Assembly (NCBI GenBank): GCA_041389045.1
Contig: JAWKSQ010000001.1
Span: forward strand, 11,063-75,062
DNA from: Minisyncoccota bacterium
GTDB taxonomy: Bacteria; Patescibacteriota; Minisyncoccia; Phycocordibacterales; UBA918
DNA: 64,000 bases
Direction of reading: 5' to 3'
Shown here: in pieces, positions 1,529 through 43,468 of the stretch
How the letters are laid out: the number at the start of each line of letters is the position of its first letter
Position numbering within the stretch: the stretch's first letter is position 1
Position numbers and translations under genes: made by a program
Notes under the pieces: model-generated
Databases searched by the model: none
The model's input: only the letters and a program-made list of their open reading frames with translations
What the model was told of the DNA's origin: nothing

Positions 1529-1945
1529 ATGACTGCCCTCCTGATTGGTGGGCTGACGCTCGCCTGTTGCCTACTCGTTGGCTATGCTACCGAGATCTAC
1601 AGCCACGGACTGAGCGAGATCTTTCCCGCCCTCAAGATGGTGTTGAAGCAATTTGGCATCATCACAGGCGTAGTCGGCGCAGCAGTTGTGATGGTGTTCA
1701 AGGCACCGACCGAGACCGAAAGGATAGTCTCTTCCCTGGTAGTTTTTTGCTTCGGTACCTTCCTGGTGCCGTCTGCCGCCTACGTCGGCTGGTTCATTGC
1801 CCGAACCTGGAGCTACTTCGTCGGGTGCGAACCACCTACGGAGCCAAGTCCCGGATGCGCAAGCATCCGGGACTTTTTACGTCAAATTTTTAATCTTTTG
1901 TACTTAATATCCAAACCCAAAACTTCCAATCGATTGGAAGTGTGA
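1529..1945 (+). CDS. Hypothetical membrane protein
   Basis: The frame is hydrophobic and TM-like, whereas the overlapping 1480..1893 frame is R-rich junk. The ORF reads through a terminator hairpin. Confidence 0.45.
   Translation: MTALLIGGLTLACCLLVGYATEIYSHGLSEIFPALKMVLKQFGIITGVVGAAVVMVFKAPTETERIVSSLVVFCFGTFLVPSAAYVGWFIARTWSYFVGCEPPTEPSPGCASIRDFLRQIFNLLYLISKPKTSNRLEV
1848..1878 (+). terminator. Intrinsic terminator hairpin
   Basis: Stem gtcccggatgc / gcatccgggac followed by ttttt. Confidence 0.55.
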
Positions 1946-2117
1946 CAGTCTTAGTTCGGGAAGGTTTTTGACTTAGAGTTTGGGTTGAACTATTTCTTCA
2001 ACTTCGCTAGAATCTAGCACTTCATCAATGTGGATCTGCGAAACAAAGTCTGGTACGTGAGAAACGAGAATCATGGCACCCTTGTAGTCATGTAGAGCTT
2101 TGGCGACATGGTAATGA
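1923..2117 (-). pseudogene. Relic copy of the ABC-F ATPase 3' end plus its downstream region
   Basis: It aligns by eye with 3179..3372 at roughly 85-90% identity. It still reads ...VAKALHDYKGAMILVSHVPDFVSQIHIDEVLD, compared with the intact gene's ...AKALHDYKGAMILVSHVPDFVEQIHIDEVLD. Confidence 0.8.
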
Positions 2118-2158
2118 GCGACCAAATATTAATTTTATCCAGGAGGCAATATGATAAG

Positions 2159-2971
2159 CTAGATTCCTAAATCAGATAGGTCACCTCCTTTTTCAACGTC
2201 TCTAAAAGAATTGGGTTGTATTGCCCTAGGAGCCCTCTTTAGGGTGAAATACTTATTTTCTTCGGGAGTATGTAATCCTTCATTAGTATCAATTTTATCA
2301 GGGTCTTTTTTAGTGTACTCAAACTTTCTTTTATACGCACCACGTACCAGTGCAAATTTTATATTTTCTGCATCAAAAGCCGAATCAAACGCACCCTCAC
2401 TGTTAAGACCTCTATCACGGTGTTCTTGGAACACAAATTCTCGTATATCGATAGCTATTACCCGTTCAAAGAATCTTTCAATTTCCTCACGATTATCTCT
2501 CTCCAACAACTCTAATCCTACATGTTCAATTTCTTCTTTAGGGAAACGGGTAAGTAATTCAATAAAGCCAGCACCGAGACTCTGTTCACTACTAATAAGA
2601 TTGTAGAAAACTTCCCTTAATAGAGAAATTCTTTCTGTTTGACTTAGTTGCTCAAGTCCAAATCGGATAAAATAATAGTAATTCTTCATTTCCGCAGATA
2701 CTGGGTCACCATCTTCTATATCATCTAACTCGTAAATAAATTCAGCGCTAGCTAGTTTTGTGAACTGAGAGACTAAGACTGATCTATCAACTTCTTTTGT
2801 GCCGTAACTAATCGCACTCGTAATAGATGGAAAATCAAGGTCTTCCCTTTTAATATTTATTTCTTCTTCACGTTTTTTTATTCTTTCTTGATTTTCTACC
2901 TGCCTAGCAGCTGCCTGTTCATCTGTCTCTCCCTTATGTATTCTCCTCACAATCCTTTCATTTGGTGGCAT
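2159..2971 (-). CDS. Hypothetical protein (270 aa, acidic, no recognised domain) carried on the insertion between the ABC-F 3' repeats
   Basis: This is a long clean ORF. The antisense ORF 2211..2606 is low-complexity shadow. Confidence 0.6.
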   Translation of the reverse strand: MPPNERIVRRIHKGETDEQAAARQVENQERIKKREEEINIKREDLDFPSITSAISYGTKEVDRSVLVSQFTKLASAEFIYELDDIEDGDPVSAEMKNYYYFIRFGLEQLSQTERISLLREVFYNLISSEQSLGAGFIELLTRFPKEEIEHVGLELLERDNREEIERFFERVIAIDIREFVFQEHRDRGLNSEGAFDSAFDAENIKFALVRGAYKRKFEYTKKDPDKIDTNEGLHTPEENKYFTLKRAPRAIQPNSFRDVEKGGDLSDLGI

Positions 2972-3052
2972 ATAAAACTTATATTAGCTTTTATACCACT
3001 AAGTATCTCTCTCTCTTTGATTTTGCAAGTATATTAAATATGCCTGTTTTAA

Positions 3053-3084
3053 TTTACTCGTTTACTCGTTTACTCATTTACTCC
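3053..3084. repeat. Tandem 8-nt repeat, tttactcg x4 (last two copies degenerate)
   Basis: Read directly as tttactcg tttactcg tttactca tttactcc. It lies upstream of the 270-aa ORF. Confidence 0.9.
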
Positions 3085-3178
3085 ATCTAATCTAAACAAA
3101 ATCTTAGTTAACTGATGGGTCATGTTAATACCCCAATCGGTTGGGGTACTGAAAAGTTAACTGACTGAATCACAAAGC

Positions 3179-3372
3179 CTTCCAATCGATTGGAAGTGTG
3201 GCAGTCTTAGTTCGGGAAGGTTTTTGACTTAGAGTTTGGGTTGAACTATTTCTTCAACTTCGCTAAATCCAGTACTTCATCAATATGGATTTGTTCCACG
3301 AAGTCTGGAACGTGAGAAACGAGAATCATGGCGCCTTTGTAGTCGTGAAGGGCCTTGGCAATAACAGGAATG
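3179..3372. repeat. Second copy of the ~195-bp direct repeat (the functional 3' end of ABC-F)
   Basis: It pairs with 1923..2117. Both copies begin with the palindrome cttccaatcgattggaag. Confidence 0.8.
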
Positions 3373-24036: not shown

Positions 24037-25791
24037 TTATAAAGTAAGTAATGTTACATTTAATTGCACATCACCATCGATATTAACATCATTAAATGTG
24101 TGTGATTGATAACCAGGTGCGCTGATATTGAGAACGAAGTCAGTCTGAGGCAAAGTGACCCCAGGAAAGTACACCTTGCTTACAAGCGCCGGTATATCTA
24201 GTTTGATTATATCCAGACCTAGTAAGAACAGCTTCGATACCAGGAATTGGTTCACCAATAATATCCGTACTTTACTCAGTGTGTTATTAACAGCCGGTGT
24301 AACTATTACTTCTAAATCTCCGTCGACTCCAGCCTGATGGATGAATGGGTAGGTTCCGCGCAACCCTGTGCCACTTTATACCCTGCAACGCTGACATGAT
24401 ATTCGTCGAACTCAACCGCCCCCAGTAATCTCTCCATTGACATCAGTAGTAGTACTAACATCATATTTATAAATAAAGTTAGCTGTTGCATCAGTACCAA
24501 TTATCTTACTACCTCTAACTCCCATACTTTGATTAGTCATTAGGGTTTCAGCTTCACGATAATAAACACCGACTTCATCGATAATAGGTGTTACGGACAC
24601 ATCGCTTGTTTCTAGCACTACACCAACAACAAAGCTTGGGTATAGAGTCGGACTTAGGTTGGAAATATCAATAATTGAATCAGCAAAACCGCCACTATTC
24701 CCCGGCAAATCTGTATCAGGAATTATTGTATATGGACCGGCACCGGCGCCTGTGTAAAAATAAACTTTATAATCCGTGTCGGCTGGAACATTTGCTGCTA
24801 CTCTAACTGCCTGCCAGGCTTCAATTGCAGTTGGTATAACTTCGAAATAAACCTCCCCGTAAACATCATAAACCCCGGCCGTGTCAGACAATACTAATTC
24901 GTCACCATTGCTAGCCACACTACTGTAAGAAGTGATACCTCCCAAAGAAGTAAAATCTTCAACAAACCGACTATCGGTCACACTAGACTTGAGTACTAGG
25001 TTAATGTCACTTAACTCACCAATTTGGAAAGTTAGCGTAGAAATGTCAGATTCAAGTACTGAAAATGGTGACAAAGAAGGGTTCGGATTTGTGGTAGTGG
25101 CCTCGTAAGTTTTATCGACAGAGTATGACTTCCCCGCGATTGGACCAGTCACTGATACTTCATAATTACTATCAACTGGTGTTCCAGAAAACAAAGCTTC
25201 TCCATTTACATCAGTTATCTTAGTGACATCAATCGGACTTGTAGAACTAGCATTAGTTAAACGCACTCGTGCTCCAGGCAAAAGATTGGATTGATCATCA
25301 ATCACGTTAATTCGTACCGTTCCTCCACCAGCAGTGGTCTCAATCGACCGAGGGACAATATTACTAATAAGTGCAATCTGACCATTCACACCATTAATTT
25401 CCCAAGTATATTCCACTTTTACTCTTTTATAATCTGAGGGAATACCATTAGTATCTGCCACGTTCAGTCCATCTGCCGGGTCATCAACATACTCCACCAA
25501 GACTCTCTCATTAAACTCAATCCCATTAAGACTAATAATGTTGTTTTGAGGAATAGTACCGGGAGGAATACCAGCTATCGTACCAACGTTGTTATATGGT
25601 AGTGATCGAAAATATTCCATTCGATCATTGGCGACTGAAATGGCACTGAGTTTTGAACGTGATAAATTGATCAAACGTAGTGAATATTGAAACGAAGCAA
25701 ACATTGCCCCGAAGATCAAAACAGAAATCGCTGACACAATAATCACTTCCACCAAAGTGAAACCTGACTTTTGTGTCAAAGCTTTATACAT
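24037..25791 (-). pseudogene. Large pilin-like protein (prepilin N-terminus + Ig/carboxypeptidase-regulatory-like repeats); 3' ~125 codons frameshifted
   Basis: The motif MYKALTQKSGFTLVEVIIVSAI is a class III signal. 24412..25791 is intact. The frame then shifts at the ggggg run (…EITGG|AVEFDEYHVSVAGYKV…) and at least twice more. Confidence 0.7.
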
Positions 25792-25798
25792 GACAACT

Positions 25799-27025
25799 TT
25801 ATTTAAGTCCGTCTGACATTGAATAAATCGGCGCAATCATAGCCAGTGCAAAGAACCCTACACCCGCACCAATAAAGACCATTAAGAGTGGTTCAATAAT
25901 GGTGGATAGGTCTTTGGTTTTTCGCTCAACTTCTGTCTCATAAAATAAAGCTAGCTCACCAAGCATACCAGAAATCTGTCCAGTCTCTTCACCCACGAGG
26001 ATCATTTCGCCGACTAGAATCGGATATAAGTCGGTACGCTCCACAAACACTTCAGACAAAGCAGTACCTTTTTCAACGCGTTTTCTAGCTTCTCGCAGAA
26101 TTTCTTTATAATAAACATTTTGTACTACTTCCTCAGTAATTTCGATGGCTTGTATCACGTCCACTCCGGAGTTAAGTAGCGAAGAAAGGGTTCTCGCAGT
26201 CCGGGCAGCATTGGTCTCTTTGGCCATAGTCCCGATTACTGGTAACCGAGTAACCGTCCAAGAAACTGTGGTTTTCCCTATTCTAGTGCGCAAGAAATAA
26301 ACCACCGACAGCACCAAGCCGATAATAGAAGAAAGTGCTAGTACCGTGTGGGCCACAAAGAAATCACTTGATTCAATGAGAAAAGTAGTAGTGGCTGGTA
26401 ACTCCTTATTCATTCCTTTAAAAACATCTGTGATTTGGGGCAATACGAATATCATCATGAGAATAGCAATAATCACCATTACCGTAATGACAATACCCGG
26501 ATAAATCATGGCCCCTTTGATCTTCTTAATCAGATTATTGGAGCGTTCCATCTGTACTGACAGTGTCTGCAGTGACTCCGCCAAATTTCCACTTTCCTCA
26601 CCAGACTTAATCATCGCCACATAAAGATCACTAAAGACTTCTGGATATTCCTTGAGTGTTTCAAATAACTGATCACCACTATTGATACGTTCATTAATCC
26701 TTTTGATGACACTTTTTAGTTTTGGGTTCTTACTCTGCCTTTCGATCACCGAAAGGGCTCTAGTGACTGTTAAACCCGCGTTAAGCATCGAACCCAGGTT
26801 ACGAGTCATCATGATGAGCTCATCTGATTTTACTCGACTAAGCAGAATGTTGAGCTTTTCAACATTCAGAAATTGTTTATACCCACCTGAGGCGTTATCT
26901 ATACTGGTGACTTTATGTCCGTCACGACGAGCGACGTCGTAGACCGCGTAACGATCGTCGGCAGTGACAGTCTCGGTCACACTATTACCTTCTTGATCTT
27001 CTCCAGTATAGGTAAAAGTTGGCAT
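25799..27025 (-). CDS. pilC: Type IV pilus platform protein PilC (GspF family)
   Basis: Duplicated T2SSF domain architecture, three TM regions, 408 aa, immediately downstream of pilB. Confidence 0.9.
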   Translation of the reverse strand: MPTFTYTGEDQEGNSVTETVTADDRYAVYDVARRDGHKVTSIDNASGGYKQFLNVEKLNILLSRVKSDELIMMTRNLGSMLNAGLTVTRALSVIERQSKNPKLKSVIKRINERINSGDQLFETLKEYPEVFSDLYVAMIKSGEESGNLAESLQTLSVQMERSNNLIKKIKGAMIYPGIVITVMVIIAILMMIFVLPQITDVFKGMNKELPATTTFLIESSDFFVAHTVLALSSIIGLVLSVVYFLRTRIGKTTVSWTVTRLPVIGTMAKETNAARTARTLSSLLNSGVDVIQAIEITEEVVQNVYYKEILREARKRVEKGTALSEVFVERTDLYPILVGEMILVGEETGQISGMLGELALFYETEVERKTKDLSTIIEPLLMVFIGAGVGFFALAMIAPIYSMSDGLK

Positions 27026-27028: not shown

Positions 27029-28780
27029 TTATTCGTTAATGACTCGAAGAACTTCTTCGATACTGGTATAACCTCGAGCCGCTTTGTAAATACCGTCCTC
27101 CATCATGGTGAGCATCCCCTCTTTTCGTGCCTGTGTCTCCACTTCGTCTCCGGTCTTACCGGCTATAACCATCTCCTTGATTGAAGGGGTCATTTCCAGC
27201 ACCTCATGAATGCCCATACGACCCTTGTAGCCATCTTCGGTTTCCCCCTTTTCTTTAGGGTGATAAAAAGGAATGTCGTTCCAAGTAGCAGAGTCAGCAA
27301 CAATTTTCTCTTCCTTTAGCGTCTTAAGCACCAGATCCATATTAACGTGTTCTTCTAATTCTTCCCTTTCAGCCTTGGACAAGACATAAGGTAGCTTATC
27401 GTCAGCCAACTTACGCACTAGACGTTGCCCAATTGCTACTCGTAAGGTCGATACAAGCAAGAACGTCTCCACTCCCATATCAGTCAAACGAGCGACTGTA
27501 CCAGCCGCTGAGTTAGTGTGTACTGTGGCCAACACCAAGTGACCTGTTAAAGCGGCGTTAATACCTAGACTAGCTGTCTCTTGGTCACGGATTTCCCCCA
27601 CCATAATAATGTCTGGGTCCTGACGCATAAGTGACCTTAGGCCCGCAGCAAAAGTAAAACCAATTTCCGGCTTAACCTGACTTTGGTTAATACGAGGCAT
27701 TTGATATTCGATTGGATCTTCAATGGTTGAAATATTTACTTCTGGTGAATTGAGTAAATCTAGAACCGTATAAAGTGTTGTCGACTTACCAGAACCAGTT
27801 GGTCCAGTTACTAAGATTATACCGGTGGTAGCCCTAGTGGCTTTATGAATACGCTCGAGCGTAGAGCCATGGAAACCAATTCCTTCGAGAGAATAACCAC
27901 TGCGGTTCTCGCGCAAAAGACGCATGACGATTTTCTCGCCATAAAATACCGGTAGGACCGACACGCGGAAGGCGACTTTTTGACCATCCATCTCCATTTT
28001 GAAACGACCGTCCTGCGGTAACCGCTTTTGGTCCAACTTAAGATTGGAAAGTACCTTGATACGAGCCACCAGAGTTCCTGCCGCATGCTTAGGCAGTTTC
28101 ATGGCATCGTTCAAAATACCGTCGATACGATATCTTACCACCACCTCTTCCTCCATCGGCTCAATATGAATATCAGATGCACCCTGAATAATAGCGTGAC
28201 GTAAAAGTGTATCAATAATACGCACTACCGGTAGGTCTTCGGCCATTTTCTTGAGATCACTTTCAGACATTTCTTCCCCATTTTCTTCCGCAATCACTTT
28301 GAGAGCTGAAGCATCCTTCATAATGATGTCACCAAACTCATCTTTCAGAGTTTTTTGGTATTGCTGAAGCGCCATTCGCATTGACTCAGTATCAGTCAGT
28401 CGAGATAAAATCTTTAGACCAACTTTCTTACGCACAAAATCAATCGCTGGTAAGTCAGCTGTATCAAGCATCGCTACTTCAAGTTCCTTATCATTTTTCT
28501 TATAGGCAATGATGTTGTGGTTACGCGCTACCGGTTCAGGAATGAGAGCTAATACATCAAAATCAATTTTAATATTTTTGAGAGAAACAAATGGAATACC
28601 GAGTACGTAAGATTCTATGCGTCGCATATCATCTTCGGTCATATGACCTTGTGAAATAAGAGCTTCAGCCAGGGTACGTCTTTCATCCTTAGCTACTTTT
28701 TCCACGGCCGAAATATCGGACTTTTTAATAAGTCCGGCATCAAGAATAAAACGCTTTAGTTGTTCATCTTGTATACGCAC
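27029..28780 (-). CDS. pilB: Type IV pilus assembly ATPase PilB (GspE family)
   Basis: T2SSE N-terminal domain, Walker A GPTGSGKSTT, Asp/His boxes, 583 aa. Confidence 0.93.
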   Translation of the reverse strand: MRIQDEQLKRFILDAGLIKKSDISAVEKVAKDERRTLAEALISQGHMTEDDMRRIESYVLGIPFVSLKNIKIDFDVLALIPEPVARNHNIIAYKKNDKELEVAMLDTADLPAIDFVRKKVGLKILSRLTDTESMRMALQQYQKTLKDEFGDIIMKDASALKVIAEENGEEMSESDLKKMAEDLPVVRIIDTLLRHAIIQGASDIHIEPMEEEVVVRYRIDGILNDAMKLPKHAAGTLVARIKVLSNLKLDQKRLPQDGRFKMEMDGQKVAFRVSVLPVFYGEKIVMRLLRENRSGYSLEGIGFHGSTLERIHKATRATTGIILVTGPTGSGKSTTLYTVLDLLNSPEVNISTIEDPIEYQMPRINQSQVKPEIGFTFAAGLRSLMRQDPDIIMVGEIRDQETASLGINAALTGHLVLATVHTNSAAGTVARLTDMGVETFLLVSTLRVAIGQRLVRKLADDKLPYVLSKAEREELEEHVNMDLVLKTLKEEKIVADSATWNDIPFYHPKEKGETEDGYKGRMGIHEVLEMTPSIKEMVIAGKTGDEVETQARKEGMLTMMEDGIYKAARGYTSIEEVLRVINE

Positions 28781-28962: not shown

Positions 28963-29733
28963 CTACACCCGCACTCGCCAACCAATCTTGAATAGATAGA
29001 AAACTAAAGTACCAAGACTAAGTATTAACCCCCCAATCACCAACTCACCCACATACATGTTGGCTTCGCTGATGCCGATCATGGAATTTCTAATTCCATC
29101 CACGAAATAAAAGAAAGGATTTAGCTTAGTGATGAACTGGGCTGTCTCAGGAAGCATAGTGAGAGAATAAAAGATTCCACCCAAGTATGTAAACGGGGTG
29201 ATGACAAACGTATTGAGAATTGATAACTGTTCAAAGCTTTGGGCCCATAGCGCCACCAACATACCAAGTAAAGAGAAAATCGCTGACACTGCTAAGATAT
29301 AAGCAAAAAACATCACTGGACTAGTTAAGGTCACTGCACCAAAGAAAACTCCGACCAATAAAATCAAACTGGCCACAATCACTGACCTCATCATCGAACC
29401 TAGCATAAATCCGAAGATGATTTCCAGGTACGAAAGTGGGGCTACCAACAACTCCTCAATACTCTTGGTAAAGCGAGCGAAGTAAAGGGAACTAGAACTA
29501 CTACCAAACGAAGCGTTAATGACCGACAGCATCAGAATACCGGGAAAAACAAACGTTATGTACGGTACTCCCGCGATAGTCGAAATCTTCCCCCCTACCA
29601 CTACCCCAAAAATAAAGATGTAGAGCGTAGCCGAAATTACCGGCGCCACCAAAGTCTGGACCACCACCCGAAAAGTCCTCATCACCTCACGGCGAATCAT
29701 CGTATAGACCCCTACCCAATGTATTTTATTCAT
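28963..29733 (-). CDS. ABC-2 type transporter permease
   Basis: Six TM segments and typical ABC-2 organisation; adjacent to an ABC ATPase. Confidence 0.85.
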   Translation of the reverse strand: MNKIHWVGVYTMIRREVMRTFRVVVQTLVAPVISATLYIFIFGVVVGGKISTIAGVPYITFVFPGILMLSVINASFGSSSSSLYFARFTKSIEELLVAPLSYLEIIFGFMLGSMMRSVIVASLILLVGVFFGAVTLTSPVMFFAYILAVSAIFSLLGMLVALWAQSFEQLSILNTFVITPFTYLGGIFYSLTMLPETAQFITKLNPFFYFVDGIRNSMIGISEANMYVGELVIGGLILSLGTLVFYLFKIGWRVRV

Positions 29734-29737
29734 ATAG

Positions 29738-30472
29738 TTATACTGAGTTATTTCCCGTTAGTTTCAAATACTTCTCTTCCACCGAACCTTCCTTGGTAAA
29801 GTCAGCGATAGATTCGCAAATTAGAAGCTTTCCTTTATTAATCACGGCCACCTCATCACACAGTTGTTGTATCTCTTCTAGATAATGAGACGTAAGAATA
29901 ATAGTGGTACCAGCCTGATTTAGTTCCCTAAAGTACTTCCAAAGACTTCTCCGTTGCTCAACGTCTACGCCAGCGGTTGGTTCGTCTAAGATCAGTAGCG
30001 GTGGTTTATGAATAAGTGCGCGAGCTAGCGTAACTCGCCTTTTGAGTCCACCCGAGAGTTCCTTGAACTGCTTATTGGCATGTTCGTTTAGATCAAACTG
30101 ATTAAGTAATTCTTCAATTCTGGTTTTTCTTTCAGTGATAGATAAACCATAATAACCACCAACAAAATCCAAAAGTTGCCGAGGGGTCGCAAAAATATCC
30201 ACATTAAATTCTTGTGGTGAAAGACCGATTTGTTGCCTAGCCTCCTGGTACTCGGCCACCACATCCTTTCCACCCACCACAATATTTCCACCCGTAATAC
30301 GCCCAATACCAGTGATGCAGTGAATCAGAGTAGATTTCCCGGCACCATTAGGACCAAGTAAACCAAAGAAACCGCCTGCGTTTATACTTAAATTAAAATC
30401 CTCCAGCACGACTTTCTCGCCGTACTTTTTAGTTAAATTCTTCACCTCCAAAATTGGTAATTTTTCTTGCAT
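29738..30472 (-). CDS. ABC transporter ATP-binding protein
   Basis: Walker A GPNGAGKST, signature LSGGLKRR, Walker B LLILDEPT. Confidence 0.92.
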   Translation of the reverse strand: MQEKLPILEVKNLTKKYGEKVVLEDFNLSINAGGFFGLLGPNGAGKSTLIHCITGIGRITGGNIVVGGKDVVAEYQEARQQIGLSPQEFNVDIFATPRQLLDFVGGYYGLSITERKTRIEELLNQFDLNEHANKQFKELSGGLKRRVTLARALIHKPPLLILDEPTAGVDVEQRRSLWKYFRELNQAGTTIILTSHYLEEIQQLCDEVAVINKGKLLICESIADFTKEGSVEEKYLKLTGNNSV

Positions 30473-30583
30473 GAAAAGAAGTATAACAGAATTTTATAAA
30501 GGCAGTTTATTAAAAATTTAGGCAGACATACGAAAGCCCAGTTCCCGTGAGGTCCTGGGCTTTGCTCTCTGGTCCGGCGTTGA

Positions 30584-30661
30584 TCAGGTCGCGGCGTTGA
30601 AAGTGTTGTTCAGCACAACACCTTGAGGGGCGCCTTGACGGGCGCGGCAGGTTGGTTTCAT
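30584..30661 (-). CDS. Candidate 25-aa small ORF (MKPTCRARQGAPQGVVLNNTFNAAT) inside a GC-rich structured element
   Basis: The RBS aaggag lies 6 nt upstream of the ATG, and a hairpin aaagcccagg.../...cctgggcttt follows. The alternative is a non-coding structured RNA. Confidence 0.25.
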   Translation of the reverse strand: MKPTCRARQGAPQGVVLNNTFNAAT

Positions 30662-30854
30662 GAGATACTCCTTGAAACGAAAGAACTAGACCGCTCGTGC
30701 GTACGAGCATCCTTGCGTCAGCTTGGACTCTTTTATGCTATCACAAGCAAATAAAGTTACAATAGTGGCTTTCACACTATTTATTAATAGTGTGTTCGCA
30801 GTTAAATTTATGCAACTCTTTTAAATATCATTATCGCTATCCTATCCGCCTTTT

Positions 30855-31123
30855 ACTTTACATCCCACCCCTTCTTATATATAGTGCTCGGCTTGTGCCG
30901 GGCATTCTTCGTGAGAAATTTGAAAAATATCCAGAAAAACCTTTATTTTTAAGCTTATTTAGATTATTAACCTAAGAAATTATTATGTTTGACCTAAAAG
31001 TAATCAATGCCGTTCTTGAAGAAATGGAGACAGAACGTGGTATTGCTAAAGAAAAATTAATCGACGCTATTGAGCAGTCTCTAGCTACCGCCTACAAAAA
31101 GGAGTTTGGGAAGCGTGGCCAAA
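30855..31123 (+). repeat. Direct repeat copy 1: nusA upstream region plus the first 46 codons
   Basis: It is identical to 33365..33649 except for 2 substitutions and a 16-nt indel, counted by eye. Confidence 0.9.
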
Positions 31124-31155
31124 GCAAAACCGCTATACATTGGGAAACAAAATAG
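30985..31155 (+). pseudogene. Truncated nusA 5' fragment (46 NusA codons fused to 10 foreign codons)
   Basis: MFDLKVINAVLEEMETERGIAKEKLIDAIEQSLATAYKKEFGKRGQ is followed by SKTAIHWETK*. Confidence 0.85.
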
Positions 31156-31403
31156 ACGATGTCTTTTTAGTCGCTATTGAGTTCAGCTTTCTTGCGAGCT
31201 ATGCTAGTAAAGACACGAAGATAATTCATCTTGAGCGTTGTATCTCAAGAGTAGATTTACTAAAAATATTATTACAGCTGGCATGGGAAATCCGTGCTCT
31301 CGACACAAAGAAATACACAGTGTTAAGTGAGCAATTACAGGAAGTCGGTAGGATGCTCGGTGGTTGGAAGAAAGGATTAGAGACGAAAAACTCCCCACAT
31401 TAG
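31140..31403 (+). pseudogene. avd: Avd-like four-helix-bundle protein (DGR accessory variability determinant family), 5'-truncated at the repeat junction
   Basis: The frame is open back to the junction at 31124 (…RYTLGNKIDD…). The C-terminus LSEQLQEVGRMLGGWKKGL resembles the Avd / 23S-IVS four-helix-bundle signature (…VGRILGSWI…). Confidence 0.65.
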
Positions 31404-31421
31404 TGAGGAGAAAACGATGTG

Positions 31422-31535
31422 TTGCTTGACCACCAGACGATGGCGATTGTCGGCATTCCAGACGTTGTCGTTCTCGAAGCGGTTCACGTTGGCCTTGAGC
31501 TTAACACCATTCACGTTGACGTTAGCGACGAACAG
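31422..31535 (-). repeat. DGR template repeat (TR), 114 nt, adenine/AAC-rich on the minus strand
   Basis: It aligns without gaps to 31856..31969. There are 20 mismatches, 18 of them at TR adenines. It reads ...ANVNVNGVKLKANVNRFENDNVWNADNRHRLVVKQ. Confidence 0.85.
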
Positions 31536-31780
31536 AAACGATATGTGGAATATACCATCCATACCACCAACGTTTGATAGTAAACTAACGAACGCATGAA
31601 TTTTATGCGAGACCTAAAAGTCTTCCAGTATACTCCACCAACAAATTATTTTTTGAAAAGAAATAATATATCTATACTTCACTTAGCCGTGACTTCATGA
31701 ATTCTAAGTTACACATTTCTGCACACAAACTTCCAAAGCCGTAACCGTTGAAATAGTATTTGCGGCCTCTTTAGTATACG

Positions 31781-31815
31781 AAAAAATCCCTCGGACGCGC
31801 GAAGCGTCCGAGGGA
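31781..31815 (-). terminator. Hairpin/terminator immediately downstream of the VR
   Basis: Stem tccctcggacgc / gcgtccgaggga with a T-run on the minus strand. Confidence 0.7.
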
Positions 31816-31852
31816 TAAAGAGTCAAAGACCTAAGAGCTGAGTTCAAGCAGT

Positions 31853-32448
31853 CTATTGCCTGACCACCAGACGAGGGCGACTGCCGGCATGCCAGACGTC
31901 GTTGCTCTCGAAGCGGAACACGCAGGCCTCGAGCCCCACACCATACACGTCGACGAGAGCGACGAACAGCTCGCCATCCACTTCAAACAAAAAGAAGGTA
32001 CCGTAGCCTTCCTGCCGAAGTGAGTCGCTGTGCGAGCGACAGAACTCCACGATCTGCCCCTGTGTGAGACAGAGCTTACGCGGATCACCGAGCGAACCGA
32101 ACAGCGTTTTGAATGTGCCGTTGCGGGTCATTTCGTGCACGTCAACTTTGGCCTCGGCGGTGTCTTCGCCAGTGACATCGGTGCCCCAGTTTTTGAAGTC
32201 ACTGTCGATGTAGCCGGTGAAGACCTTTGTGGCCTTGACCAGTGTGGCGTCACCCTTGGTTGAGGGGAGCGTGATGGTTGCGAGGTGGCGCAGATACGAA
32301 TACTTCTTGTTGCCACCAAGTACCGATTCTATTTCTCGAAACTGCTCGGGAGTCGCTTGCCCAAACTTGGTGACAAGCTCGGCATTCCAGCCGACTGCCT
32401 CCAGCTTTTGACCAGCTGGGCGATTTGGTTGAAGCTGTATGAAGACAT
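31853..32448 (-). pseudogene. DGR target protein (~198 aa, GC-rich) with the VR at its C-terminus and a 1-nt frameshift at codon ~15
   Basis: The ATG at 32448 gives MSSYSFNQIAQLVK. One extra A in the aaaa run (32406..32409) joins this to LEAVGWNAELVTKFGQATPEQFREIE...VFRFESNDVWHAGSRPRLVVRQ*. The length of 596 nt equals 3n-1. Confidence 0.75.
31856..31969 (-). repeat. DGR variable repeat (VR), the last 38 codons of the target ORF
   Basis: See the TR alignment. VR codons CTC, GAC, TAT, GGG, GAG, TGC, TTC, AGC, CAT, GGC, AGT, CCT and AGG replace TR AAC/AAT/AAG/GAC/CAT codons. Confidence 0.85.
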
Positions 32449-32814
32449 GTCTTCATTCCTTTCCGGCACATGTGCCATTTTGCCAGCGGGTTTCCAAAAT
32501 TGGATTTACCATAGCTTTAAAGCAATAATTGAATTACAAACTTAAAGCTATGGTAAAAGTTTTTAATGAACTGCTTGCCCACCTTTAAATACAGTCATAG
32601 AATAAACATCTATGAACCAAGGAAACAAAAGAGAACATCTACACTAACTCAGGCAACTATAATACCACATTTCTGACTATTTAGCAAGGCATAATAAAAA
32701 CTTGGTTCATATCATCCAGACCCTGGGCCTTTACGTAGGGCGGGAGTTTGAGATGTTGGACGAAGTAAAGGCTTAATAGCGAGAATAAGCAGGCTTGTGA
32801 AACTGAGAAATTAA

Positions 32815-32846
32815 TGTATGATAATTTCATATTAAATTATCATACA
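32815..32846. promoter_or_regulatory. 13-bp inverted repeat operator just upstream of the antitoxin start
   Basis: tgtatgataattt cat att aaattatcataca ends 6 nt before the ATG at 32852. Confidence 0.55.
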
Positions 32847-32851
32847 ATTCT

Positions 32852-33019
32852 ATGTCTACTATTTCTGTACCCCTAACCCCTGAGCTTTCAAAGTACATTG
32901 AAGAAGCTACTAAAAGTAGCGGCTTAACTAAGTCTGATATAATGCGTCAAGCCCTTACTCTCTACGCCGAAGAACAGGCTGTTCGTAAGGTACTTCTGGC
33001 AGTCAGTGAACCTTCCTAG
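32852..33019 (+). CDS. RHH (CopG/ParD-like) antitoxin, 55 aa
   Basis: MSTISVPLTPELSKYIEEATKSSGLTKSDIMRQALTLYAEEQAVRKVLLAVSEPS. It is below the ORF-track size cut-off and lies directly upstream of the toxin. Confidence 0.7.
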   Translation: MSTISVPLTPELSKYIEEATKSSGLTKSDIMRQALTLYAEEQAVRKVLLAVSEPS

Positions 33020-33059
33020 AAGGTGACCTATGTGATCTAATGGAAAAATTAGACTAAAC

Positions 33060-33317
33060 ATGCAAATCCTTTACAAGCCATCGTTCGTTCGAGAATTTAA
33101 AAAACTACCAGAAGAGTTAAAGGAAGCAGCCTTGGAACGCATTGAATTATTTAAAGACCCCTCAAATCACGACAAGCTAAAAGTCCATAAACTTAAAGGT
33201 AAATTAAAGGATTTCTACAGCTTCTCAGCCACCTACTCGCACCGGATCGTATTTATGTATGAGCAGAAAGAAACTGTAGTTTTTCTAGCCATTGGTGACC
33301 ACAGTGTTTATAAGTAA
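33060..33317 (+). CDS. RelE/ParE family type II toxin
   Basis: MQILYKPSFVREFKKLPEELKEAALERIELF...HKLKGKLKDFYSFSATYSHRIVFMYEQKETVVFLAIGDHSVY matches the RelE/ParE pattern. Confidence 0.8.
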   Translation: MQILYKPSFVREFKKLPEELKEAALERIELFKDPSNHDKLKVHKLKGKLKDFYSFSATYSHRIVFMYEQKETVVFLAIGDHSVYK

Positions 33318-33364
33318 CACCCAAAATCCATCCGAATTCGCCTTATCAAAGGTAGCAAAAATTC

Positions 33365-33649
33365 ACTTTACATCCCACCTCTTCTTATATATAGTATAAG
33401 GACTCATGAATGCTCGGCTTGTGCCGGGCATTCTTCGTGAGAAATGTGAAAAATATCCAGAAAAACCTTTATTTTTAAGCTTATTTAGATTATTAACCTA
33501 AGAAATTATTATGTTTGACCTAAAAGTAATCAATGCCGTTCTTGAAGAAATGGAGACAGAACGTGGTATTGCTAAAGAAAAATTAATCGACGCTATTGAG
33601 CAGTCTCTAGCTACCGCCTACAAAAAGGAGTTTGGGAAGCGTGGCCAAA
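33365..33649 (+). repeat. Direct repeat copy 2 (native promoter/5' end of the intact nusA)
   Basis: It pairs with 30855..31123. Confidence 0.9.
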
Positions 33650-34932
33650 TCATAAATGCTCACTTTGACCTCAACACTGGTACCACTACTTTCAACCAGA
33701 TCAAGATTGTGGTTGACGAAGACATGCTTAAGCCAGAGCTAGCTGATGGTGAAGAAGACGTCGAGGAAGAAGACGAAACTCCAGCTGATGGTGAAGAAGA
33801 AAAGAAGATTCGTTTTGACGATGAAAAGCATATTATGCTTTCTACCGCTAAGATGATTAAGAAAGATGCCCAAGTGAACGAAGAATTGGTTTTCCCACTA
33901 GAACCACGAGACGATTTTGGTCGCATTGCTGCTCAAACAGCCAAGCAGGTGATCGTCCAAAAAATTCGTGAGGCTGAAAAAGAAGCAGCTTTAGCTGAAT
34001 TCGGACAGAAAGCGGGTGACATTGTCATGGGACATGTTCAGCGCTTTGAGCGAGGGAATCTCTACGTTGACCTTGGTCGCGTAACGGCCATCATGCCTTA
34101 TGATGAGCAAATCCCGGGTGAAAGATATAAACCAGGCGAAAGAATCCGTGCCCTTCTGGTAGCCGTTGAAGAAACTTCACGCGGTATTTTCCTCAAGCTT
34201 TCACGTTCTCATCCTGATTTTCTATCTGGTCTATTTGCGATTGAAGCACCTGAGCTCCAAACCGGCGTAGTTGAAGTAAAGGCGGTCGCTCGCGAAGCTG
34301 GTGCCCGGTCTAAGATTGCCGTTTATGCTTCTGACCAACACATTGATCCAGTAGGGTCTCTAGTAGGACAACGAGGTGTTCGAGTATCGACGGTCATGAG
34401 TGAACTAGGTGGCGAGAAAATCGACATCATCGAATGGTCGCCAAACGTATCTGAGTTTCTGGAAGATTCTCTTTCTCCAGCTCAAGTACTTTCAATTAAA
34501 ATTGTTACTGAGCCAGATGCAGAAAAGAACGAACGCGGTCACGCTATTGCTGAAGTAGCTCCAGACCAACAGTCCCTAGCCATTGGTCGTGGTGGACAGA
34601 ACGTTCGCCTCGCTGCCAAACTGACTGGTTGGAAGATTGATATCGTTTCAGCGCAAAGTGGCGAAGCTCTAGCCGAAGCTGACGCTAATGGAAAGGTGGA
34701 CTTAGAGGCTGATGTCGACACTCCGGTCGGAAGTGATGAAGATGTACTGGAAAATGAAGACGCTACGACAGTAAATCCAGAGCTACCAAGTGAAGATGAA
34801 GCGACAAATGACCGTGACACCAATCCTGACTCCGAGGAAGAAAACGAAATCGATACTCCAGAAGAAGCAGAAGAGCTGGTAGCGGACGAACAAGACAAAG
34901 CTGACGTAGAGAAAGATGAAGAAAAGAAGTAA
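33511..34932 (+). CDS. nusA: Transcription termination/antitermination factor NusA, with an acidic insertion and an acidic C-terminal tail
   Basis: NusA N-terminal domain, S1 (GDIVMGHVQRFERGNLYVDLG), and KH1/KH2 (GQRGVRV, GRGGQNVRLA). Confidence 0.93.
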   Translation: MFDLKVINAVLEEMETERGIAKEKLIDAIEQSLATAYKKEFGKRGQIINAHFDLNTGTTTFNQIKIVVDEDMLKPELADGEEDVEEEDETPADGEEEKKIRFDDEKHIMLSTAKMIKKDAQVNEELVFPLEPRDDFGRIAAQTAKQVIVQKIREAEKEAALAEFGQKAGDIVMGHVQRFERGNLYVDLGRVTAIMPYDEQIPGERYKPGERIRALLVAVEETSRGIFLKLSRSHPDFLSGLFAIEAPELQTGVVEVKAVAREAGARSKIAVYASDQHIDPVGSLVGQRGVRVSTVMSELGGEKIDIIEWSPNVSEFLEDSLSPAQVLSIKIVTEPDAEKNERGHAIAEVAPDQQSLAIGRGGQNVRLAAKLTGWKIDIVSAQSGEALAEADANGKVDLEADVDTPVGSDEDVLENEDATTVNPELPSEDEATNDRDTNPDSEEENEIDTPEEAEELVADEQDKADVEKDEEKK

Positions 34933-34963
34933 TTATTTAGTTGTTATAAAATAATACCTATAT

Positions 34964-35491
34964 ATGAATCTACTACACGACATCGCCCCAGGCACCACTG
35001 AAGAAATGAATGTGATTGTTGAAATCCCAAAATTCTCAAAGAATAAATACGAAATCGACAAAGAGACTGGCATTATCGCCCTAGATCGAGTGATGCATTC
35101 AGCCCAAGATTATCCTTTTGACTACGGTTTTGTCCCCCAAACACTTTTCGATGACGGTGACGCACTGGACGTTGTACTAGTCACTACCTACCCACTAGCT
35201 CCTGGCATCCTGGTCAAAGCTCGCCCAGTTGCTGTTATGGAAATGATTGATGGTGGTGATTTAGATTCGAAAGTTGTAGCAGTACCAGTGGACGACCCAA
35301 GATTTGACGACATAAAGGATATCACCGACCTAAATAAGCATTTCATTAAAGAAATGACTCACTTCTTTGAAACCTATAAGAAAATTCAAACCGATGAAAA
35401 AATAGAAGTCGGTAAATGGCATGGAGCTAAAGAAGCCAAAGAAGCTTTTGCTCGCAGTTGCGAAATGTACAAGAAAGACAAAGCTAAATAA
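34964..35491 (+). CDS. ppa: Inorganic pyrophosphatase (family I)
   Basis: VIVEIPKFSKNKYEIDKETG…DGDALDVVL…VAVPVDDPRF. Confidence 0.93.
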   Translation: MNLLHDIAPGTTEEMNVIVEIPKFSKNKYEIDKETGIIALDRVMHSAQDYPFDYGFVPQTLFDDGDALDVVLVTTYPLAPGILVKARPVAVMEMIDGGDLDSKVVAVPVDDPRFDDIKDITDLNKHFIKEMTHFFETYKKIQTDEKIEVGKWHGAKEAKEAFARSCEMYKKDKAK

Positions 35492-35683
35492 TCTAATTAT
35501 TTATGCTCAACAAAAAGCCGGATGATAACTTCGTTATCATCCGGCTTTTGTTGAGCCAACATTTTTTATTGTTTTGACACAAAAATAGTACCTAGCCTGT
35601 GCATACCAAAACCCACTTAGTATGGCGAGTGACGGTATACTATTTTTATCCACCACGATTTCAAGATTAATTAAATTTACACA

Positions 35684-41690: not shown

Positions 41691-41794
41691 TTTTTAACTC
41701 CATTAAATAAAAACTGCGCGACCAAAGGTCGCGCAGTTTTTATTTATACCAACAAATTATTAGCAACTTTATTTTTTGGTGTTATACTTATAAA

Positions 41795-41892
41795 TGTAGC
41801 GGAGGTAATACGCTATGTGGAAATGCAAAGGTATTCCTCGCTATTTCCCATCACAATTTGGTAAAAGCCCCTACAGCCATGGGGCTTTTACT
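41795..41892 (+). ncRNA. Candidate ~100-nt sRNA or 39-aa sORF transcript
   Basis: The extended -10 tgtTATACT, a short structured region, and the intrinsic terminator aaaagcccc/ggggctttt (41863..41889). The RBS+ATG at 41815 reads through the terminator. Confidence 0.25.
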
Positions 41893-41966
41893 TTGCCCAA
41901 AATTGCAAAAAAAATAATACCAGTGTCAAAATAGTAGAGTGACCTTATTAATACAAATAAAACATT

Positions 41967-42830: not shown

Positions 42831-42837
42831 ACAACAA

Positions 42838-43468
42838 CCACCGGACTTAGGTCCGGCGCTTTAATTTCATCTAGTCGGATGAACCATCTGCCGGATTAAG
42901 CCGGCTGAACTAGTTGCTAGGAGATTGGTTTGTTAAATAGTGATGGTTGATCAACTTGATTATGATGATCTTGATGCTTCAGTGCCGACGGATAATCATT
43001 TCATCTAGACCGATCGTAGAGACGAAATAACCTCTATAGTTAGAGTGATTCTTTTTCATAGAGACCATGAGCACGTTTTATTTTCTTCTTCATCAAGCTG
43101 AGCTTTTACCTTTGATTATTTGCATCAGGTACGAGACTGAATCCCTCGGAGAGCACTCAGTATTAAGTGGATATGATCATCTTGGATGTTTAGTTCGATT
43201 ATTTCCCAGTGTCTGTATTTAGTGATTGATTCAAAGGTACGTCTCAATTCATCTTTAACCTTTTGTGGTCCTAGTACCTTGCCTCGGTATTTTGGAGTCC
43301 AGACGAGATGGTATTTCATCTCGTAACAATGTGCTAGTGTTTTAATGGTACGTTGCGCATACGTATTTAAGTTATTACTAAAGCCGACCGCCCGCTTCAC
43401 TGTATGCGTTGCACTTCAAACGTACTCTCCGGTGAAGCCGGAGGGTTTTTAGGGATAACAAAACCCCG
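42838..43468 (-). mobile_element. Degenerate IS200/IS605-family element (tnpA relic plus end hairpins)
   Basis: Hairpins are at 42840..42857, 42890..42905 and 43426..43446. The Y1 transposase relic lies between them. Confidence 0.6.
42979..43400 (-). pseudogene. tnpA: IS200/IS605 Y1 (HUH) transposase TnpA, multiply frameshifted
   Basis: …MKYHLVWTPKYRGKVL…DDHIHLILSA is followed, in other frames, by PRDSVSYLMQIIKGKSS and YRGYFVSTIGLDEMIIRR. Confidence 0.8.

Follow-up and report, generated by a model that had tools for sequence, protein, structure and literature searches.

A duplicated nusA promoter and 5′ end around a retroelement remnant and a toxin-antitoxin pair: a candidate natural case of insertion-duplication in Patescibacteria

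Of 60 recombinants in an E. coli screen, 56 had duplications of 109-950 bp of the homologous locus, which arose by a single crossover of a resected, re-circularised molecule (PMC3240628). Homology-facilitated illegitimate recombination (HFIR) proper yields an insertion together with a deletion, and the summary given in the same paper of the work of de Vries and Wackernagel (2002) and Prudhomme et al. (2002) presents canonical products as coupling the two. In transformation-induced merodiploidy, alternative pairing leads, through unequal sister-chromatid exchange, to the duplication of 100-900 kb between pre-existing repeats (Johnston et al. 2013, PMC3784515). Hot spots of variable genes, finally, can be turned over by double homologous recombination in the flanking core genes (Oliveira, Touchon and Rocha 2017, PMC5635113).

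Here we examine a locus in a 64-kb stretch of DNA (the window) from a patescibacterium, a bacterium with a tiny genome. In it a block of 2.2 kb stands upstream of the essential gene nusA, flanked on both sides by a copy of that gene's promoter and 5′ end. We will argue that the block is a natural example of the scar left by a known type of recombination, and not a new kind of system. The features of the locus are collected in Table 1.

Table 1. Features of the nusA locus, and a second gene-end duplication, in the 64-kb window.
Feature	Position	Strand	Description or basis
Second gene-end duplication, ABC-F	1923..3359	-	ABC-F 3′ end and downstream sequence (3179-3359) repeated at 1923-2104
pilB (GspE-type ATPase), left core flank	27029..28780	-	583-aa ORF; orthologue divergent from nusA in relatives
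ABC-2 transporter pair	28963..30472	-	Permease 28963-29733, ATPase 29738-30472; Pfam ABC2_membrane, ABC_tran
Spacer, ABC start codon to left repeat	30473..30851		About 380 nt, unexplained; GC-rich core 30510-30750
Left repeat copy	30855..31123	+	nusA promoter, leader lacking 16 nt, RBS, codons 1-46
Dead nusA fragment ORF	30985..31155	+	46 NusA residues and 10 out-of-frame residues, 56 aa
Novel joint	31119..31123		Overlap of at most 5 nt (CCAAA); nusA ..GTGGCCAAA versus avd CC[A/T]AAGCAAAAC..
avd remnant	31124..31403	+	Pfam bAvd (PF22296), profile positions 33-106 of 107
DGR template repeat (TR)	31422..31535	-	114-nt repeat, 82% identical to VR
Intrinsic-terminator-like hairpin after target gene	31786..31816	-	13-bp stem and T-run
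DGR target gene	31853..32448	-	VR 31856-31969 at 3′ end; stop codon 31853-31855
Palindrome upstream of RHH gene	32815..32846		Self inverted match, 93.75% over 32 nt
RHH (CopG-type) antitoxin	32852..33019	+	Pfam RHH_1, E = 2e-5
RelE/ParE-superfamily toxin	33060..33317	+	Pfam ParE_toxin (E = 7.1e-6), Gp49
Right repeat copy	33365..33649	+	nusA promoter, complete leader, RBS, codons 1-46; runs into intact nusA
Leader hairpin and U-rich tract, attenuator-like	33403..33441	+	Fold; conservation upstream of nusA
Intact nusA, right core flank	33511..34932	+	Pfam NusA_N, S1, KH_5; 473 aa

The two copies measure 269 nt on the left and 285 nt on the right by alignment and a repeat finder, and the alignment distinguishes them by only three differences. 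These are two substitutions (C/T at 30870/33380 and T/G at 30920/33446) and one 16-nt indel, the block ATAAGGACTCATGAAT at 33396-33411, which is present in the right copy only. The duplication contains about 200 nt of exact identity, is the longest repeat of the whole window, and cannot be due to chance. It begins 2-3 nt 5′ of a promoter-like TTTACA-17-TATAGT (30857-30885 and 33367-33395; 10 of 12 matches, the best such site of the region) and extends through leader and RBS to 1 nt beyond codon 46 of nusA. The ORF that starts in the left copy reads on into avd sequence in a different frame and matches Pfam NusA_N at profile positions 4-44 only (E = 4.8e-9), while the right copy leads into the complete gene, whose orthologues are 80-92% identical. 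A previous inspection of the letters of this DNA, the sequence-only reading, had described two near-identical segments, a dead nusA fragment on the left and an intact gene on the right, and between them a truncated avd, a TR, a VR/target gene and an RHH-RelE pair. The alignment, the Pfam matches and the TR/VR comparison bear out this description in all these points.

The leaders of the two copies differ in their predicted folds. On the right a stem of about 16 bp is formed (centroid -24.5 kcal/mol), whereas on the left, where the 16-nt gap sits directly after the -10 element, the 5′ lower stem is lost and 7 bp remain. This hairpin motif is found upstream of nusA in 42 of 160 related loci, with compensatory changes, and the 16 nt absent from the left copy, which make up half of the conserved, covarying hairpin, are present in all relatives. 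The comparison shows a deletion in the left leader to be the derived change. The decaying copy is the left one, which drives nothing, and the functional nusA keeps its hairpin; the earlier statement that the essential gene stays intact is thus supported and extends to its conserved leader. It is important to note that conservation among relatives starts exactly at the nusA -35 element, the sequence further upstream being lineage-specific, so that the left end of the repeat needs no second novel joint.

Diversity-generating retroelements (DGRs) are reportedly found in CPR bacteria, and the DGR in the block derives from the cassette type native to these organisms. Its avd lacks the first ~45 of 136 codons relative to the full-length avd of a related locus (L164), to which the remnant is 77% identical in DNA and ~90% identical in protein by manual count. 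The TR is placed with respect to avd just as it is in L073 and L164, whose cassettes are intact, and 18 of the 20 TR/VR mismatches lie at adenines of the TR (minus strand). The frame of the target gene is open for ~200 codons with the start codon in another frame, and a single frameshift in an A-run (plus-strand T-run 32405-32408) has probably inactivated the gene. After repair of this frameshift the target protein has 369 homologues, the best at 75% identity, and the few of them that carry a source name all come from Patescibacteria (Parcubacteria, Nomurabacteria, Kaiserbacteria). The terminator-like hairpin lies within a spacer element that is conserved across the target family and is 74-88% identical in L161-L165.

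Where the nusA fragment now lies, L073 and L164 have the reverse transcriptase (RT) of an intact cassette. Pfam scans gave no RVT_1 match anywhere in the 64-kb window. The only YxDD match of the window, in a 474-aa ORF at 24412-25836, was considered as an RT candidate and rejected, its Pfam matches being N_methyl and CarboxypepD_reg. The block thus retains an adenine-biased TR/VR pair with the VR at the 3′ end of the target, and has neither an RT nor an intact Avd; judged by its gene content, it appears to hold a remnant, not a working cassette. A decayed DGR also adjoins nusA in L104, where avd is full-length and only the C-terminal ~85 residues of the RT are left.

On the other side of the block, the RHH gene lies 40 nt upstream of the RelE/ParE toxin gene on the same strand, which is the type II gene order, and the two are predicted to form a type II toxin-antitoxin (TA) pair. 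The palindrome in front of them, 96.7% conserved over 30 nt in L083, is a likely, putative operator of the pair. Homologues of both genes (84% identity for RHH, 72-73% for the toxin) are found directly upstream of nusA in L082 and L083, and the latter is collinear with the window from the TA pair into the right nusA block (32817-33452).

We now consider the locus in relatives, where the region between pilB and nusA behaves as a hot spot. The gap between these two genes is at most 450 bp in 57 of 106 related loci. The ABC-2 pair, missing from most relatives, abuts the nusA promoter in L085, L086, L087 and L171, and is an earlier cargo of the same hot spot that constitutes the resident context of the left copy. 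In L171, the closest distinct relative (NusA 91% identical), 47 nt separate the start codon of the ABC ATPase from the nusA promoter block, and the island is absent. An empty nusA site, proposed previously as a check, is therefore found in these four ABC-nusA loci, which belong to relatives and not to the same species. The term accessory island holds in the sense that the block is an insertion relative to these loci, but it is not one foreign unit, with TA homologues native upstream of nusA in L082 and L083 and a DGR of CPR-native type. Less can be said for the suggestion that such an architecture recurs in the lineage, as none of the 160 related loci duplicates the nusA 5′ end.

Two further observations concern the history of the site. 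The ABC-type relatives have 17-77 nt where the window has the ~380-nt spacer, which means that at least one further event has taken place here. This spacer has no DNA or translated match in the fetched loci and no Rfam match at E up to 1, and its fold z-scores are -1.7 and -0.85. A contig of the same species from another sample is a mosaic of identical and ~5% diverged stretches, a pattern indicating that homologous exchange is active in the population. The only 100% NusA match, P0241 (an NCBI MAG contig), is probably the source itself.

The joint between the left copy and the cargo was defined by comparing the two repeat copies with each other and with the near-identical avd of L164, and it links nusA codon 46 to approximately avd codon 46. 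Both outer junctions resemble natural arrangements in relatives, namely ABC-nusA on the left and TA-nusA on the right, and the nusA46/avd joint, which is of the microhomology type, is the only new one.

We propose that the structure arose by one homologous and one illegitimate exchange between two hot-spot haplotypes, most likely through Campbell-type integration of a re-circularised fragment, a scenario to which we would give about an even chance of being correct. The resident chromosome would have been of the ABC type (pilB, ABC-2 transporter, nusA promoter, nusA), and the incoming DNA would have been that of a very close relative with a DGR/TA-type arrangement (RT, avd, TR, target, RHH-RelE, nusA promoter, nusA). 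No single relative has DGR, TA pair and nusA together, and we therefore infer the donor haplotype as a composite. A fragment with one end inside avd and the other at nusA codon 46 would have been closed at the CCAAA microhomology of at most 5 nt into a non-replicating circle of ~2.5 kb, which a single crossover in its 270-bp nusA promoter and 5′ patch could then have integrated. The expected order is ABC, promoter and nusA 1-46, avd remnant, TR, target and TA pair, and finally promoter and intact nusA, so that the second cargo would be stacked onto the first and not swapped for it.

According to this scheme the DGR would already have lacked its RT and the first ~45 avd codons on arrival, and target diversification could take place only with an RT from elsewhere in the genome. 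The TA pair would penalise loss of the block by recombination between the direct repeats, and may in this way stabilise it. The left copy, being non-functional, would have been decaying since, as the 16-nt deletion in its conserved leader suggests. The locus does display flanking direct repeats, one intact and one truncated copy, a single novel joint, and an unoccupied site in relatives. Of the Campbell-type origin put forward in the sequence-only reading, the insertion, the intact gene and the microhomology joint hold, and the duplicated patch fits the documented outcome; the reading is not unique, however, since the same structure would also result from a one-ended event with linear DNA, or from a tandem duplication and subsequent replacement. 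Genes for competence and recombination are present in the window (pilB, pilC, a pilin, ComEC domains and recJ), and comEC looks split. Natural transformation imports single strands, and a double-stranded circle is not its usual product. Both the double-stranded circle and the split-looking comEC count against the reading that we prefer, as do the composite donor, the ~380-nt spacer and the lack of a similar nusA duplication in the 160 related loci.

A linear, one-ended and HFIR-like event would draw on the same two parental contexts and leave the same microhomology joint. A fragment running from the truncated avd through the TA pair and the promoter into nusA would here undergo homologous exchange inside or beyond nusA, with its other end joined at resident codon 46, and the resident promoter and 5′ end would become the left copy. 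The competence and recombination genes of the window are in line with such an event, and microhomology joints of 3-10 bp are typical of HFIR (PMC3240628). We nevertheless regard it as possible but unlikely: HFIR as documented in that work consists of an insertion with a deletion in the recipient, not of a duplicated anchor, the illegitimate joint would have to fall within the donor-homologous region, and the apparent split of comEC weighs against it as well.

An intrachromosomal origin was also considered, and the nusA46/avd joint has exactly the form of a tandem-duplication junction. Starting from an ancestor with RT, avd, TR, target and TA pair upstream of nusA, an illegitimate sister-strand exchange between avd and nusA codon 46 would produce a 2.5-kb tandem duplication, of which the left unit together with the RT would later be deleted, or replaced by an ABC-type allele in a homologous exchange. 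Decayed DGRs at the same site in relatives (L104) and the same-species mosaic, which shows allelic replacement to be common, are consistent with this route. It requires at least two events, however, and a plain deletion would have to stop by coincidence no more than ~3 nt from where the conserved promoter block begins; moreover, the closest relative (L171) is of the ABC type without any trace of DGR or TA pair. We consider this origin quite improbable.

Another option is an assembly artefact, in which a free 2.5-kb circle or an alternative strain haplotype has been threaded through the exact repeat, the true chromosome having an empty site. The ~200 nt of exact identity exceed typical k-mers, and a second, independent assembly with these junctions was not found. 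Upstream of the TA pair, L082 and L083 each run out after a few hundred nt, from which it follows that assemblies tend to break in this region. On the other hand, with an overlap of at most 5 nt the nusA46/avd joint cannot have been made by an assembler and must exist in real DNA. The alternative threading would also place the essential nusA behind the damaged leader and the intact leader on a non-essential molecule, and a 2.5-kb circle without a replication gene would not persist. An artefact is thus very unlikely.

Site-specific integration of a small mobile element, with the nusA promoter and 5′ region as attachment site, could account for direct repeats flanking the cargo and for a gene-end fragment of the kind left by elements that enter gene ends, but it is close to refuted, because Pfam scans detect no integrase, recombinase or transposase in the island ORFs or in 58 ORFs of the window, the 269-nt repeat far exceeds typical att cores, the inner end cuts avd mid-gene at a microhomology, the hot-spot cargo of relatives is heterogeneous with no recombinase in the 25 families listed (of 34 matched), and neither the cargo nor a relative of it nor the junction was found in viral, phage or plasmid collections. 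Insertion of a transposon or IS was likewise rejected: there is no transposase, the repeat finder detects no inverted repeats at the island ends, and the duplication is 269 nt long.

The window contains a second duplication of a gene end, at the ABC-F gene, with a 270-aa ORF (2159-2971) between the repeat copies. One block of 87 nt is 99% identical between these copies and the adjacent 94 nt are 83% identical; of the 16 differences, 14 affect third codon positions. Sequence beyond the ABC-F stop is not conserved in relatives. The previous claim of the same architecture at this gene thus holds in outline, but the 99%/83% mosaic is more than a single simple Campbell event can explain, and an extra event is needed.

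Patescibacteria may routinely gain accessory genes without mobile-element machinery, through sister-strain fragments that are re-circularised and enter by a single crossover at conserved gene ends, perhaps after uptake via the type IV pilus and ComEC apparatus. We put this forward as a doubtful generalisation. If it is true, cargo would be stacked beside essential genes, gene-end duplications would be the scars, and TA pairs would keep what has been added from being lost; in the two scars within 64 kb, at the nusA 5′ end and the ABC-F 3′ end, such a general route would become visible for the first time.

Compared with the DGRs of CPR bacteria, the remnant has the same type of Avd, a TR that directly follows the avd stop and lies on the other strand, a C-terminal VR, adenine-specific TR/VR mismatches and a target of the same family. 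It differs in having no RT, an avd that is short of ~45 N-terminal codons, and a target that is probably frameshifted. The surroundings are those of the hot spots of PMC5635113, with a variable region between the core genes pilB and nusA, heterogeneous cargo and half of the relatives empty; neither the window nor the list of Pfam families in the cargo of relatives yielded an integrase or transposase. A double crossover swaps cargo cleanly, however, whereas here a second cargo is stacked and a gene-end scar is left.

With merodiploidy (PMC3784515) the locus has in common that exogenous DNA sharing a chromosomal repeat would lead to duplication without a transposase, but the repeat would here be created by the event itself and the unit is only 2.5 kb. 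The resemblance to HFIR, as far as it is summarised in PMC3240628, lies in one homologous anchor and one illegitimate joint at a short microhomology, by which DNA without a homologue in the recipient is imported; in the present case the anchor is duplicated, nothing essential is lost, and no recipient deletion is apparent.

The closest comparison is with the Campbell-type insertion-duplications of PMC3240628. Unlike in those experiments, the event would be a natural one in the genome of an uncultivated patescibacterium, the patch includes an essential gene's promoter and 5′ end, the cargo consists of part of a neighbouring haplotype (DGR remnant and TA pair) instead of a plasmid, and the circle is inferred rather than observed. 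In both cases the patch of homology is directly duplicated, over 269 nt at the nusA locus and over 109-950 bp in E. coli, one of the copies runs on into the intact gene, a single novel joint closes the circle, and an element-encoded recombinase is not required.

The longest repeat in the whole 64-kb window consists of two direct copies of the 5' end of nusA. The copies start 2-3 nt 5' of the region's strongest promoter-like sequence (TTTACA-17-TATAGT, 10 of 12 matches, present in both) and extend through the leader and the ribosome-binding site to nusA codon 46 plus 1 nt. Pairwise alignment bears out the sequence-only reading, according to which the two segments are the same sequence apart from 2 substitutions and one 16-nt indel. 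The substitutions are C/T at 30870/33380 and T/G at 30920/33446 (left/right), and the indel is a block at 33396-33411 of the right copy that is absent from the left one. The left copy was also rightly taken for a dead nusA fragment and the right one for the start of the intact gene: the former leads into a 56-aa ORF that matches the NusA_N profile over its first 44 positions only, while the latter is continuous with a complete 473-aa NusA. We rejected the possibility that the left copy is a cDNA made by a reverse transcriptase (RT), since it includes the -35 and -10 elements, which lie 5' of the likely transcription start.

Features of the nusA region and of other parts of the window (window coordinates)
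Feature	Position	Strand	Basis or remark
Left nusA copy	30855-31123	+	269 nt; repeat search and pairwise alignment
Right nusA copy	33365-33649	+	285 nt; repeat search and pairwise alignment
Leader hairpin, right copy	33403-33441		folding
Hairpin remnant, left copy	30886-30903		folding
bAvd without N-terminus	31124-31403		Pfam
TR	31422-31535	read on -	114 nt; repeat search
VR	31856-31969	read on -	repeat search
DGR target gene	31853-32448	-	
RHH gene	32852-33019		Pfam
ParE/RelE toxin gene	33060-33317		Pfam
comEC, Lactamase_B domain	13287-14174		
Superoxide dismutase gene	14265-14840	opposite to comEC parts	between the comEC parts
comEC, C-terminal Competence part	15261-15806		
comEC, DUF4131 and N-terminal Competence part	15970-16926		
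tRNA-Pro	61363-61434	+	
Second tRNA	63196-63265	-	found by Rfam, not by ARAGORN
HTH_23 protein gene	63331-63960		

Pfam and the TR/VR comparison confirm that the island between the copies holds, as had been read from the sequence, an avd remnant, a TR, a VR with its target gene and an RHH-RelE pair. The first three belong to a diversity-generating retroelement (DGR), the last is a toxin-antitoxin (TA) pair. On the minus strand, 18 of the 20 TR/VR mismatches affect adenines of the TR, with A>G in 10 cases, A>T in 5 and A>C in 3. The non-adenine mismatches were considered as a clock of DGR inactivity and found uninformative, because intact cassettes have 3-5 of them in the same alignment. The target frame is open over ~200 codons, but a single frameshift in a run of A separates it from the ATG; a terminator-like hairpin lies 3' of the gene, and a palindrome is located upstream of the RHH and ParE/RelE genes. 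Pfam scans of 58 ORFs revealed no RT in the window, and the sole YxDD match in six frames lies in a 474-aa ORF (24412-25836) for which Pfam gives pilin-type N_methyl and CarboxypepD_reg domains.

Intact cassettes of the same type are found at the related locus L073 and in a complete Nomurabacteria genome (L164, CP060227.1). In both, RT and avd point away from each other, the TR lies after the avd stop codon on the opposite strand, and a target with a C-terminal VR comes next. The window cassette is 72-77% identical to that of L164 at the DNA level over 31119-32558, and its Avd is nearly identical (~90%, counted by hand), its gene being short of ~45 of the 136 codons. The layout and the missing codons indicate thus that the window cassette was cut exactly on the RT side, at the place that is now occupied by the nusA fragment.

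Homologues of the target family number 369, and all those with a source name come from Patescibacteria. The window gene (GC3 of 0.71) and three homologues (L161, L163 and L164) have 54-56% GC in genomes of 39-49% GC. High GC was rejected as a sign of foreign origin, since the family is GC-rich in every genome examined and its composition is therefore no evidence for a foreign source. The junction and the cargo gave no match to viral contigs, phages or plasmids. Just 3' of the target there is a ~120-nt element that includes the terminator hairpin (31707-31823; L161/L162, 7706-7821; L163, 2033-2157). It is 83-88% conserved, also where the gene calls show no nearby RT Pfam hit. At L163 a target homologue (61%; 1472-2035) is located between rpsJ (S10) and rplC (L3) in a ribosomal protein operon, with no avd or RT Pfam hit among its called neighbours.

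We now turn to the boundaries of the island. The structure contains a single new joint, at which nusA at codon 46 is fused to avd at about codon 46. When both copies are compared with the L164 avd, the joint falls in a shared stretch of no more than 5 nt (CCAAA, 31119-31123), a mark of illegitimate recombination and not of the k-mer overlap of an assembler.

The 16 nt missing from the left copy are present in all relatives, including the closest distinct one (L171, NusA 91% identical), which agrees with the right copy at the second substitution as well. They supply the lower half, on the 5' side, of a leader hairpin (GAATGCTCGGC-loop-GCCGGGCATTC) that is extended to ~16 bp and has a U-rich tract behind it. 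The right copy forms this hairpin (centroid -24.5 kcal/mol), and the left one retains 7 bp only. As the left copy lacks 16 conserved nucleotides, the decaying copy is the one joined to the dead nusA fragment, which is what a real integrated structure predicts. The hairpin motif, GA[A/C]UGCUCGGC-loop-GCCG[G/A]GCA[U/G]UC with a U-rich tract after it, is found 5' of nusA in 42 of 160 related loci (L002, L003 and L081-L095 among them), with compensatory changes, and has no match in Rfam. It resembles a transcription attenuator and may be a site of NusA autoregulation. Between hairpin and nusA ATG, L083 (~750-880), L092 and L002 have an extra conserved leader element of ~100 nt with a hairpin of its own, CCCAAAAT..ATTTTGAGAG, which the window lacks.

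The organism belongs to the Patescibacteria and is Paceibacteria/Kaiserbacteria-like. In related genomes, nusA and ppa are transcribed divergently from pilC and pilB. Where this order is found (106 loci), the distance between pilB and nusA has a median of 431 bp; 57 loci have at most 450 bp, 20 have 451-1000 bp, another 20 have 1-3 kb and 9 have more than 3 kb. The cargo of the occupied gaps is unrelated from case to case (cell-wall hydrolases, glutamate dehydrogenase, RuvA, ABC-2 transporters, a ParE toxin, GIY-YIG and others). At one locus, L104, the sequence directly 5' of nusA (76-732) comprises an avd of full length and, of the RT, no more than the C-terminal ~85 residues; it is a second, independently decayed DGR at this position.

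Two types of neighbour of the nusA promoter are of special relevance here. In the ABC type (L085, L086, L087 and L171) an ABC-2 transporter lies immediately 5' of the promoter block; L171 lacks the island, and 47 nt separate its promoter block from the start codon of the ABC ATPase, so that an empty nusA site, asked for by the sequence-only reading, does exist among relatives. In the TA type (L082 and L083), RHH (84%) and RelE (72-73%) homologues are found immediately 5' of nusA, and L083 is collinear with 32817-33452, that is, across the right junction. Both outer junctions of the window thus resemble natural arrangements among its closest relatives. Alignment of the nusA upstream regions shows that conservation starts exactly at the -35 element and that sequence further 5' is lineage-specific. 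The left end of the repeat is therefore where homology between the ABC and TA types stops, and needs no separate explanation.

All observations are explained by two exchanges, one homologous and the other illegitimate, in which an ABC-type chromosome recombined with DNA from a close relative of the DGR/TA type. In the donor, avd would have been contiguous with 31124, reading ..CC(A)AAGCAAAAC.. at the joint. The cargo would then have been stacked (ABC plus DGR/TA) and not swapped, and the DGR would already have been disabled on arrival. The block may be open to excision by recombination between the repeats, and the TA pair may protect it from being lost in this way. Another sample provided a contig of the same species (L170, ENA ERZ28659597) that is 100% identical to 34816-35527 over ~500 nt and ~5% diverged at both ends. 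It is a recombination mosaic at the scale of a single gene, and shows that homologous exchange is active in the population.

As to how the two exchanges came about, the proposed Campbell-type integration, i.e. a single crossover of a non-replicating circle through a nusA 5' homology patch, is the reading we favour, with about an even chance of being correct. Duplication of the homology patch is a documented outcome of a single crossover with a resected, re-circularised molecule (PMC3240628), which is the reason for this preference. In an E. coli screen built to detect homology-facilitated illegitimate recombination (HFIR), 56 of 60 recombinants had duplications of 109-950 bp (PMC3240628). The Campbell-type origin is plausible and the best available, the circle itself being a putative intermediate. 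A linear one-ended event would be the next candidate and is unlikely; HFIR proper yields an insertion plus a deletion, with joints at 3-10 bp microhomologies (PMC3240628). We consider it rather improbable that a tandem duplication arose and was followed by replacement or deletion.

Mis-threading by the assembler, of a separate circle through the empty site, is more doubtful still: the decaying copy sits on the dead fragment, and the overlap at the novel joint is at most 5 nt, unlike a k-mer overlap. Exact-protein look-ups for independent assemblies of the junctions returned no record for NusA, the 56-aa fragment, RelE or the ABC ATPase; the pyrophosphatase alone was matched, on a 712-nt contig. 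The one NusA match at 100% probably stems from the source MAG. A metagenome scan with the 56-aa fragment gave a best match of 91% over 46 residues, and neither approach found a same-species locus spanning the junctions. Site-specific integration is scarcely credible; the 25 listed Pfam families, of 34 matched in the gap cargo of relatives, include neither an integrase nor a transposase.

The sequence-only reading had further suggested that such acquisition recurs in the lineage, citing the ABC-F gene of the same window. None of the 160 related loci duplicates the nusA 5' end, and lineage-wide recurrence is therefore unsupported; the interpretation as a whole is supported in part. At the ABC-F gene, a second copy of the 3' end and downstream sequence (3179-3359) is found at 1923-2104, and the two enclose a 270-aa ORF to which Pfam has no match. 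Over an 87-nt block, made up of the last 6 codons and a further 67 nt, the copies are 99% identical; the block ends exactly at a perfect 18-nt palindrome, CTTCCAATCGATTGGAAG (1923-1940 and 3179-3196), a candidate terminator stem or recombination site. The adjacent 94 coding nt are 83% identical; third codon positions account for 14 of the 16 differences, and 1 residue in 31 is changed, which indicates a fragment of a once-functional, diverged allele. Universal conservation was rejected as the cause of the 99% block, since the sequence after the stop codon is not conserved in relatives, among which this region is variable. The parallel with nusA holds in outline, as a gene-end duplication around cargo without a recombinase, but the 99%/83% mosaic calls for one more event, be it gene conversion or the replacement of the functional copy by another allele.

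Some other features of the window were also recorded. Between the ABC ATPase start and the left copy there is an unexplained insert of ~380 nt (30473-30851). As a gene remnant it has no homologue, and as a structured RNA it was rejected, its folds not being significant. Rfam, applied to the whole window and at a relaxed threshold to 30300-33700, returned two tRNAs only. The minus strand of the insert has a 25-codon ORF (30661 down to 30584) whose start, AAGGAG-N6-ATG, is strong; after it, and immediately 5' of the ABC-2 transporter operon, comes a terminator-like hairpin (30533-30563). comEC is apparently split (13287-16926). A 48-nt direct repeat, 81% identical (1055-1102 and 43414-43461), has a hairpin CTCCGGC..GCCGGAG and then a T-run, and is a terminator-like element common to two distant loci. 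Inverted repeats of 41 nt (61523-61563 and 63066-63106) flank the genes between them, and two stretches of ~2 kb each (41725-43662 and 48814-51234) show no ORF of at least 110 aa and no Rfam match.

For annotation, these results mean that a duplicated 5' end of an essential gene is a pseudogene scar and not a paralogue, and that a clear adenine signature in a TR/VR pair can occur in a DGR without RT. Hot spots without mobile elements turn over via recombination in flanking core genes (PMC5635113), and the pilB-nusA gap fits this description. Evidence on gene gain at such sites is mostly statistical; here a single natural event is resolved to the nucleotide, with a resident flank, an incoming flank, one illegitimate joint and a decaying copy. 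Between core genes, insertion-duplication can stack cargo, besides exchange by double crossover, and an essential gene can come through the stacking intact together with its regulatory leader. Insertion-duplication at nusA is not a new principle; the mechanism is a textbook one, and the value of the case is therefore that of a well-resolved example from a poorly understood phylum.
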